Origin: Promethearchaeota archaeon
Lineage (GTDB): Archaea; Asgardarchaeota; Thorarchaeia; Thorarchaeales; Thorarchaeaceae
Direction: 5' to 3'
Length of the DNA: 7,572 bases
Assembly: GCA_027031765.1 (NCBI GenBank)
Contig: JALVPN010000015.1
Location: 1 to 7,572 of the forward strand
The notes under the pieces were generated by a model. The model saw only the letters and a program-made list of their open reading frames with translations, searched no databases and was not told where the DNA came from. The translations under genes and the position numbers were made by a program. Below are positions 7,038 through 7,572 of the stretch, one piece after another (within the stretch, counting starts at the first letter, position 1; every line of letters begins with the position of its first letter).

Positions 7038-7572
7038 GTGCGCAGGTCATCCTATTTCCTCGTTGCCCTCGTGCTCGTACTGGCCATCATCTCTGGCGCA
7101 GCAGCCACACACCCTGGGCACGCGACAGATTGGGCCACAGGTACGACCACCAGGGCCGGCACTAGCACCAACACGACATACCACCACCGCACCGGGGCCA
7201 TCCCCACGGGGGCCACACCTGCCAGGCACGACACCCCCGCCAGCGCCCCCGGCTCCACCCTCTGGTCACACCAGACCGGGGACCGGGTGTACTCCTCGCC
7301 TGCGTTGGGGGACGTGGACGGTGACGGCGACCTAGACGTGGTCGTAGGTAGCTACGACGACAGTGTGTACGCACTTGACGGTGCCACCGGCGCCACCCTC
7401 TGGTCACACCAGACCGGGTGGAATGTGTACTCCTCGCCTGCGTTGGGGGACGTGGACGGTGACGGCGACCTAGACGTGGTCGTCGGCAGCGACGACTACA
7501 GGGTGTACGCACTTGACGGTGCCACCGGCGCCACCCTCTGGTCACACCTGACCGGGGACTGGGTGGACTCCT
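7038..7572 (+). CDS. Secreted FG-GAP/VCBS plus PQQ-like repeat beta-propeller protein (3' end runs off the right edge)
   Basis: GTG at 7038 with GGGGTG 7 nt upstream. Signal peptide MRRSSYFLVALVLVLAIISGAAA, then a Thr/Ala/Pro-rich linker, then 46-aa repeats TLWSHQTGxxVYSSPALGDVDGDGDLDVVVGSxDxxVYALDGATGA. These carry a Ca-binding DxDGDG loop and the PQQ-like VYALDGxTGxxLW motif. The frame is open to the edge. Confidence 0.93.
   Translation, partial: MRRSSYFLVALVLVLAIISGAAATHPGHATDWATGTTTRAGTSTNTTYHHRTGAIPTGATPARHDTPASAPGSTLWSHQTGDRVYSSPALGDVDGDGDLDVVVGSYDDSVYALDGATGATLWSHQTGWNVYSSPALGDVDGDGDLDVVVGSDDYRVYALDGATGATLWSHLTGDWVDS
7257..7572 (+). repeat. Intragenic tandem repeat, 138-bp unit, 2.3 copies visible
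   Basis: Units start at 7257, 7395 and 7533. Units 1 and 2 match at 127 of 138 nt; the partial unit 3 matches unit 1 at 37 of 40 nt. Confidence 0.97.

Follow-up and report, generated by a model that had tools for sequence, protein, structure and literature searches.

Near-identical beta-propeller blades with two variable loops in a predicted surface receptor gene of an Asgard-type archaeon

The locus, the receptor gene and its neighbors

The window analyzed here is a whole contig of 7572 nt (C15; other contigs of the same genome are likewise cited by number), one of 229 in a 2.95-Mb MAG with 59% GC and 95% completeness. The record of the one sequencing run that contains C15 is that of a hydrothermal-vent metagenome. 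The genome encodes a full-length actin (445 bits, C97:3837-4940), a second actin-family gene (C111:3419-4288), and two Snf7/ESCRT-III genes (C211:18625-19113 and C117:8365-8823). The 445-bit actin and the two Snf7 genes are eukaryote-like signature genes and are consistent with an Asgard-type archaeal host.

At the end of the window, an open reading frame of 178 codons with a GTG start runs off the contig. We predict that it encodes the N-terminal part of a surface receptor or adhesin of the type-I membrane class, which would consist, in order, of a signal peptide, a flexible linker, an eight-bladed PQQ-like propeller, an Asp-rich calcium-repeat stalk, a transmembrane (TM) helix, and a cytoplasmic tail. 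The window holds the signal peptide, the linker, two full blades, and the beginning of a third; the features and their coordinates are given in Table 1. The fragment matches the Pfam families PQQ_2 (PF13360, 39.5 bits against a cut-off of 27.6), FG-GAP_3 (PF13517, 42.2 against 26.9), and FG-GAP (PF01839, 37.7 against 22.1). It scores 58 with Beta-prop_ACSF4 (PF13570), below the cut-off of 133 because the fragment is truncated. With the full paralogue P0002 the scores are 224 against 133 for PF13570 and 103 against 27.6 for PQQ_2, and FG-GAP_3 and FG-GAP also pass.

Table 1. Features of the predicted receptor gene in the window, and secondary structure along the 46-residue blade
Feature	Position	Strand	Basis
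Upstream non-coding region, duplicated with the gene start in a paralogue	6705-7037	+	blastn
Predicted receptor gene, 5' part	7038-7571	+	ORF list, translation; Pfam FG-GAP_3, PQQ_2, and FG-GAP above cut-off
Predicted signal peptide, RRSSYFLVALVLVLAIISGAAA	7038-7106	+	read from translation
Thr/Pro/His-rich linker with NTT sequon	7107-7256	+	translation
Blade 1 (unit 1), 46 codons	7257-7394	+	blade HMM register, alignment
Blade 2 (unit 2), 46 codons, 127/138 nt as in blade 1	7395-7532	+	alignment, blade HMM register
Blade 3 (unit 3), first 13 codons, to contig end	7533-7572	+	alignment, blade HMM register
Variable spot 1, blade 1: codons 9-12, DRVY, D-A loop	7281-7292	+	alignment; DSSP of paralogue model
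Variable spot 1, blade 2: WNVY	7419-7430	+	
Variable spot 1, blade 3: DWVD	7557-7568	+	
Variable spot 2, blade 1: synonymous V30/G31 markers and codons 33-36, YDDS, B-C turn	7346-7364	+	
Variable spot 2, blade 2: DDYR	7484-7502	+	
DVDGDGDLD Ca-binding-type loop, blade 1, A-B hairpin, opposite face	7311-7337	+	sequence; model position
DVDGDGDLD loop, blade 2	7449-7475	+	
Strand D	blade positions 1-6		DSSP of P0002 model
D-A loop	blade positions 7-15		DSSP of P0002 model
Strand A	blade positions up to 18		DSSP of P0002 model
Ca loop (A-B)	blade positions 19-26		DSSP of P0002 model
Strand B	blade positions 27-31		DSSP of P0002 model
B-C turn	blade positions 32-35		DSSP of P0002 model
Strand C	blade positions 36-41		DSSP of P0002 model
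C-D loop	blade positions 42-46		DSSP of P0002 model

Upstream of the gene, Tandem Repeats Finder detected an (ACAGG)n-like run at 6998-7024. The stretch 6705-7259, which includes the upstream DNA, is 89% identical over 556 nt to C162:731-181 (blastn), and this identity points to a recent segmental duplication. Two ordinary housekeeping genes are found elsewhere in the window, both on the minus strand: an AAA ATPase cut by the contig start (3-1088) and a RIO-type kinase (5193-6044; PF01163, 104 bits). A 667-aa open reading frame at 2742-4745 (minus strand) has weak Ig-like matches to Big_13 and Ig_Rha78A_N, both below cut-off, and may encode another surface protein.

Differences between blades and their place in the fold

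Tandem Repeats Finder reports a 138-nt period in 2.4 copies at 7245-7572. Units 1 and 2 differ at 11 of 138 nt, and all 11 differences fall into two spots, as the original prediction stated. Codons 9-10 differ at every one of their 6 nt (GACCGG and TGGAAT, encoding DR and WN), and the other five differences all lie inside unit nt 90-108. Three of these five are non-synonymous (codons 33, 35, and 36, YDDS versus DDYR) and two are synonymous (V30 GTA/GTC and G31 GGT/GGC). The 113 nt outside both spots, third positions included, show no difference between the two units. The accompanying claim that even synonymous sites are identical outside the spots is therefore correct for these 113 nt, with the reservation that the second spot itself includes the two synonymous flanking changes. 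Nine of the 11 differences occur in the 18 nt of six codons that vary family-wide (hypergeometric P = 6e-8). In a test that involves no prior choice of sites, the smallest two windows covering all 11 differences amount to 25 nt (P ~1e-5). The clustering of the differences in the window is real and non-random. Unit 3 carries DW.D in the first spot, of which codon 12 (Y, Y, and D in units 1-3) is part, and a Q6L replacement (CAG>CTG) beyond both spots.

At the protein level, blades 1 and 2 are identical in 40 of 46 residues (87%), which exceeds the median internal identity of >60% used to define highly repetitive propellers in PMC9218822; with C28 included, four full blades are available.

An AlphaFold model of residues 59-468 of paralogue P0002, for which eight paralogues served as the alignment, has a pLDDT of 88, a pTM of 0.87, and eight four-stranded blades. 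The ring of eight blades is thus established on paralogues, and the window gene itself shows 2.3 blades. In the model, codons 9, 10, and 12 map to the D-A loop and codons 33 and 35 to the B-C turn, with codon 36 at a strand edge. In a four-stranded antiparallel blade, the D-A and B-C connections lie on one face and the A-B and C-D connections on the other. From this topology and the DSSP loop positions it follows that, in the paralogue model, both variable spots are on the face that lies away from the DxDGDGxxD A-B loop; the original strand assignment, with the two spots as the d-a and b-c loops of a single face, is upheld by the model. The DVDGDGDLD loop is invariant across the young blades and, to judge from its DxDxDG motif, would bind Ca.

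Foldseek placed designed eight-blade proteins (Cake8 and Tako8) first, followed by BamB and YxaL as the best natural matches (E 1e-18 to 1e-23, TM 0.68-0.72). The fold, as modeled, is a PQQ-like eight-blade propeller with FG-GAP-type Ca loops. The initial description as FG-GAP propeller blades is accordingly right about the Ca-loop blades and the Pfam matches above cut-off, and wrong if the seven-blade integrin type is meant, since the propeller has eight blades and is BamB/PQQ-like. An integrin-type arrangement of seven blades of ~60 residues was rejected on the eight blades of exactly 46 residues found in the paralogues.

Paralogues, shared loop cassettes, and scaffold divergence

This genome contains at least 14 related genes, and the window gene is a member of this family. 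Blades were matched 86 times across 16 frames. The profile found eight blades in each of six complete ORFs (C27, C84 a and b, C87, C115, and C212), and every complete paralogue contains eight indel-free 46-aa blades. The diverged members on C222, C197, and C199 gave seven, seven, and six matches, some blades being missed by the profile. The N terminus of the window gene, with its predicted signal peptide, is also present in paralogues on C162, C84, and C27. In the complete paralogues, Asp-rich repeats of the DTDGDG(L/M)PDGWE type come after the propeller and lead to a single TM helix. The cytoplasmic tail behind it takes one of three forms: short, of about 100 aa, or a long coiled coil. The Asp-rich stalk repeats gave no Pfam report at E <= 0.001; by eye only, they resemble thrombospondin type-3 repeats.

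Paralogues stand in tandem same-strand arrays at C84:8208-15000 (two complete genes and the N terminus of a third at the contig end), C162:1-3700 (the end of one receptor gene, then the start of the next), and C28:16361-19415 (with another Asp-repeat protein following downstream). The repeat is broken by six contig ends, one each of C15, C28, C125, and C188 and both of C162. Blades on C28 differ from those of C15 at 2-4 of 120 scaffold nt and have the same A46/L2 signature; the scaffold of C15 and C28 is ~98% identical in DNA. The C15 end has no overlap of 31 nt or longer with other contigs. From the scaffold identity and the shared signature residues, the C15 gene probably continues at the start of C28, which would be its 3' part, and the stalk, TM helix, and cytoplasmic tail of the window gene would then probably be found on C28. 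The likely C-terminal half of the gene (C28:17000-19416, minus strand) has a cytoplasmic helical region of ~450 aa with an internal duplication of ~80 aa (RV.EHLAAATS.VEALE...LVTRTGEELRARVEAV) and without a Pfam match. On C33:1-282 and C164:7232-7492 there are matches to the post-propeller part with in-frame stops (TGA/TAG), which may be disrupted copies of the kind reported in young propeller families.

A protein search returned more than 1,100 relatives, widespread in bacteria and archaea, none of which is a near-identical full-length copy. The best relatives that cover about half of the query or more are 37-65% identical, with higher values only over stretches of 10-15%. When paralogue P0002 was searched in the species genomes, only relatives at <=42% identity were obtained. 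When metagenome contigs were searched for exact copies of a 31-base core of the scaffold, there were two matches, both in unrelated FG-GAP proteins and both covering the DVDGDGDLDVV codons only. The same blade positions also vary in relatives that belong to other genera of the family and phylum. One relative in another family of the phylum (G026:C89, minus strand) has two consecutive eight-blade propellers of the same 46-aa blade type in a single 1180-aa frame.

Loop strings recur between genes. The string TGGAATGTGTAC (WNVY) is found in C15 blade 2, where it is combined with DDYR, and in C28 blade 7, where it is combined with GDHS. The string TACGACGACAGT (YDDS) is present in C15 blade 1 and in C28 blade 8, the last on C28, both times with the linked synonymous GTA GGT, and the DWVD loop string is common to C15 blade 3 and C162 blade 2. 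The linked synonymous markers, together with the recurrence of loop strings in different contexts, favor exchange of DNA tracts over point mutation alone. Blades with the same index in two genes resemble each other no more than blades paired in any other way, and blade identity is greater within genes than between genes (C15 and C28 being probably linked, by scaffold likeness). We read the sharing of cassettes and the lack of same-index likeness as concerted evolution, for which gene conversion within and between tandem paralogues would be the mechanism.

In the C15 and C28 blades, scaffold pS is 0.064, scaffold pN 0.007, and loop pN 0.42, a ratio of loop pN to scaffold pS of 6.6 that is derived from four full and two partial blades in non-independent pairs. 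Elsewhere in the family the contrast is much smaller: paralogues other than C15 and C28 have scaffold pS of 0.33-0.62 and ratios of 1.0-1.4. Scaffold pS and ratio are 0.53 and 1.08 in C27 and 0.50 and 1.15 in C84b (loop pN 0.58 in both), and 0.62 and 1.04 in C87 (loop pN 0.64). For a wider young group of C15, C28, both C162 genes, C188, and C125 taken together, they are 0.33 and 1.36. Scaffold third-position identity is 0.95 between C15 blades 1-2, 0.78 in C125, about 0.55 in C27 and C84b, and 0.3-0.47 in older paralogues. The homogenized, frozen scaffold of the original prediction is thus a property of this gene and its likely C28 part, and not of the family. In the older paralogues the scaffold synonymous sites have diverged, and the loops look merely unconstrained. 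Between the window gene and its C162 paralogue, loop pN is 0.46, linker pS 0.12, and scaffold pS 0.26 (ratio 1.7-3.9). For signal plus linker in the same comparison, pN is 0.119 and pS 0.117, and the linker evolves neutrally between paralogues.

Across 50 blades there are 48 distinct loop-1 strings and 46 distinct loop-2 strings. The variable sites are enriched in W (6-7x) and Y (4x), and also in D, S, N, and H; the original prediction had listed W, Y, D, R, and N for these spots. The loops are not always protected, since the B-C loop is homogenized too in two other young pairs, in C125 and in blades 1-2 of C84.

Competing explanations, known systems, and meaning

Taking the evidence as a whole, we consider the best explanation, and a fairly probable one, to be that the window gene is a young member of a receptor family with a homogenized scaffold and diverse loops on one face. 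Two other explanations are each improbable by comparison, and to about the same degree. One is plain recent tandem duplication of blades followed by neutral drift at unconstrained loops, with neither homogenization nor selection for diversity, so that the loops would look hypervariable merely because the rest is under purifying selection. The loop pN to scaffold pS ratios of ~1.0-1.4 in the wider family fit unconstrained sites, as does the variability of the same loop positions in the blade family across other genera. Drift, however, cannot yield a loop pN of 0.42 at a scaffold pS of 0.064, and it is at odds with the recurrence of identical loop strings in different blade contexts. Between units 1 and 2 the scaffold has two differences in 120 nt, both beside loop 2, yet 6/6 nt differ in two adjacent codons, and complete change of two codons beside a scaffold nearly unchanged at synonymous sites cannot come from neutral divergence after duplication. 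The other is that the gene as written does not exist and was assembled from chimeric repeat-graph paths mixing paralogues or strains. Such an error is made conceivable by the ending of C15 in the repeat, where five other contig ends also lie, by a mean Logan word depth of ~7-10 on the non-repeat part (a per-contig mean, not a read depth), and by the first half of unit 2, which is common to C28 blade 7. The MAG is of low coverage, and the blade order past 7316 depends on this assembly: 7027-7316 is matched at 100% by an independent Logan unitig, the only such exact piece among those listed, and none of the listed unitigs bridges 7316-7572 without mismatches, the Logan contigs of three runs being short unitigs in which other repeat letters come from paralogues. 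On the other hand, the longest exact stretches common to units 1-2 are 59 and 54 nt, which single reads of 100-150 nt span, and an independent assembly of the run contains 91% of the 31-mers that were sampled. With their 11 differences, units 1 and 2 are separate sequences and do not have the form of the collapsed repeat that the original prediction had named as a possible artifact. A mis-join would alter which loops are neighbors, but not the contrast between constant scaffold and variable loops among many blades.

Programmed diversification, in which a diversity-generating retroelement, an invertase shufflon, or cassette-based antigenic variation would target the loops within the lifetime of a lineage, is still less probable than either. 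The tight localization of variable sites on a fixed scaffold and the many paralogous blades as potential donors would suit it. Against it, the 95%-complete genome has no RVT_1 (PF00078) match, control genomes giving matches; the changes are not adenine-specific (unit 1 has an A at 2 of the 11 sites); flanking inverted repeats are absent; and all DNA copies of the repeat are parts of long ORFs, with no silent template. A diversity-generating retroelement target was rejected on the lack of a PF00078 match, the coding nature of all repeat copies, and the absence of adenine bias. The reverse transcriptase with template repeat, or recombinase, anticipated in the original prediction was accordingly not found, in the genome for the reverse transcriptase and in the window for the recombinase. 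The antibody-like modular recognition system of the original prediction is a hypothesis, and of programmed machinery of the antibody or VLR kind (reverse transcriptase, adenine bias, inverted repeats, silent cassettes) there was no sign.

Under the preferred explanation, a young gene with a homogenized scaffold and diverse loops, amplification or homogenization of the blades would be very recent and would have come about through gene conversion or unequal exchange, both among the blades and with neighboring paralogues, while the D-A loop (codons 9, 10, and 12) and the B-C turn (33, 35, and 36) would stay different in nearly every blade. Ligands would most likely bind to the loop face, with specificity set by two loops on each of the eight blades. 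Diversity would arise in the germ line by mutation and shuffling of half-blade cassettes, with no dedicated diversifying machine. The loops could be kept apart by selection, or by dense mismatches that end conversion tracts. Gene conversion breaks the assumption that scaffold pS dates the loops, and positive selection is therefore inseparable from differential homogenization.

Highly repetitive propellers occur in all major lineages, including archaeal FG-GAP/alpha-integrin-like and PQQ-like propellers, and disrupted copies are frequent among them (Pereira and Lupas, PMC9218822). PMC9218822 also mentions, after Dunin-Horkawicz 2014, roles in innate immunity (WRAP) and possibly in self-recognition (VCBS). 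The window gene resembles the propellers of PMC9218822 in its near-identical blades, in a continuum of genome paralogues from young to diverged, and possibly in the disrupted copies nearby. It differs in being a PQQ/FG-GAP hybrid blade on a type-I receptor of an Asgard-type archaeon, in a gene that is partly assembled, and that paper is without an analysis of loop-specific variability. The HNWD (het-d/het-e) genes of Podospora anserina form a ten-gene family whose WD40 repeats undergo concerted evolution, both inside a locus and across loci, and in which diversifying selection acts on four surface codons of each repeat (Paoletti 2007, PMC1805685). In common with these NLRs (PMC1805685; Chevanne 2010, PMC2873952) are a multigene family, propeller repeats that here probably evolve in concert, a few hypervariable codons on the putative interaction face, and repeat shuffling that would make new combinations. 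HNWD proteins, in contrast, have the WD40 fold in a cytoplasmic NACHT NLR, variable repeat number, RIP, and demonstrated allorecognition, whereas here there are PQQ/FG-GAP blades in a predicted extracellular head, eight blades in fixed number, and no NACHT domain in Pfam searches. The window gene is an analogue of HNWD, not a member.

Two structural relatives are also only partly comparable. BamB/YxaL-type PQQ-like propellers share the eight four-stranded blades and the conserved Trp register, but BamB has no DxDGDGxxD calcium loops, has diverged blades, and is a lipoprotein of the BAM complex without stalk, TM helix, or tail. The FG-GAP propeller of the integrin alpha chain likewise has DxDxDGxxD Ca hairpins opposite the ligand-binding 4-1 and 2-3 loops, and it too forms a head borne by a stalk, followed by a single TM helix and a cytoplasmic tail. 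It differs in having seven blades of ~60 aa, Ca loops in some only, Ig-like legs, and a beta-subunit partner, against eight 46-aa blades, Ca loops in all, and an Asp-rich repeat stalk here.

The evolutionary pattern is known from propellers that were amplified recently or evolve in concert (PMC9218822, PMC1805685), and on present evidence the gene exemplifies this documented pattern clearly, if incompletely, and is not a new kind of system. A more ambitious reading, which we regard as rather unlikely, is a germ-line repertoire of integrin-like receptors whose heads are continually rebuilt by gene conversion among tandem paralogues and in which selection keeps the loops of one face diverse. If true, prokaryotes would have an extracellular equivalent of the fungal HNWD or WRAP recognition repeats, for recognizing partners, kin, or viruses. 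If the loop face binds ligands and its diversity is selected, the model of concerted evolution plus a hypervariable face, so far one for cytoplasmic WD40 receptors, would extend to a Ca-loop propeller outside the cell. These receptors would then be candidates for Asgard recognition of surfaces, partners, or viruses, which matters for how cells interact in the lineage closest to eukaryotes.
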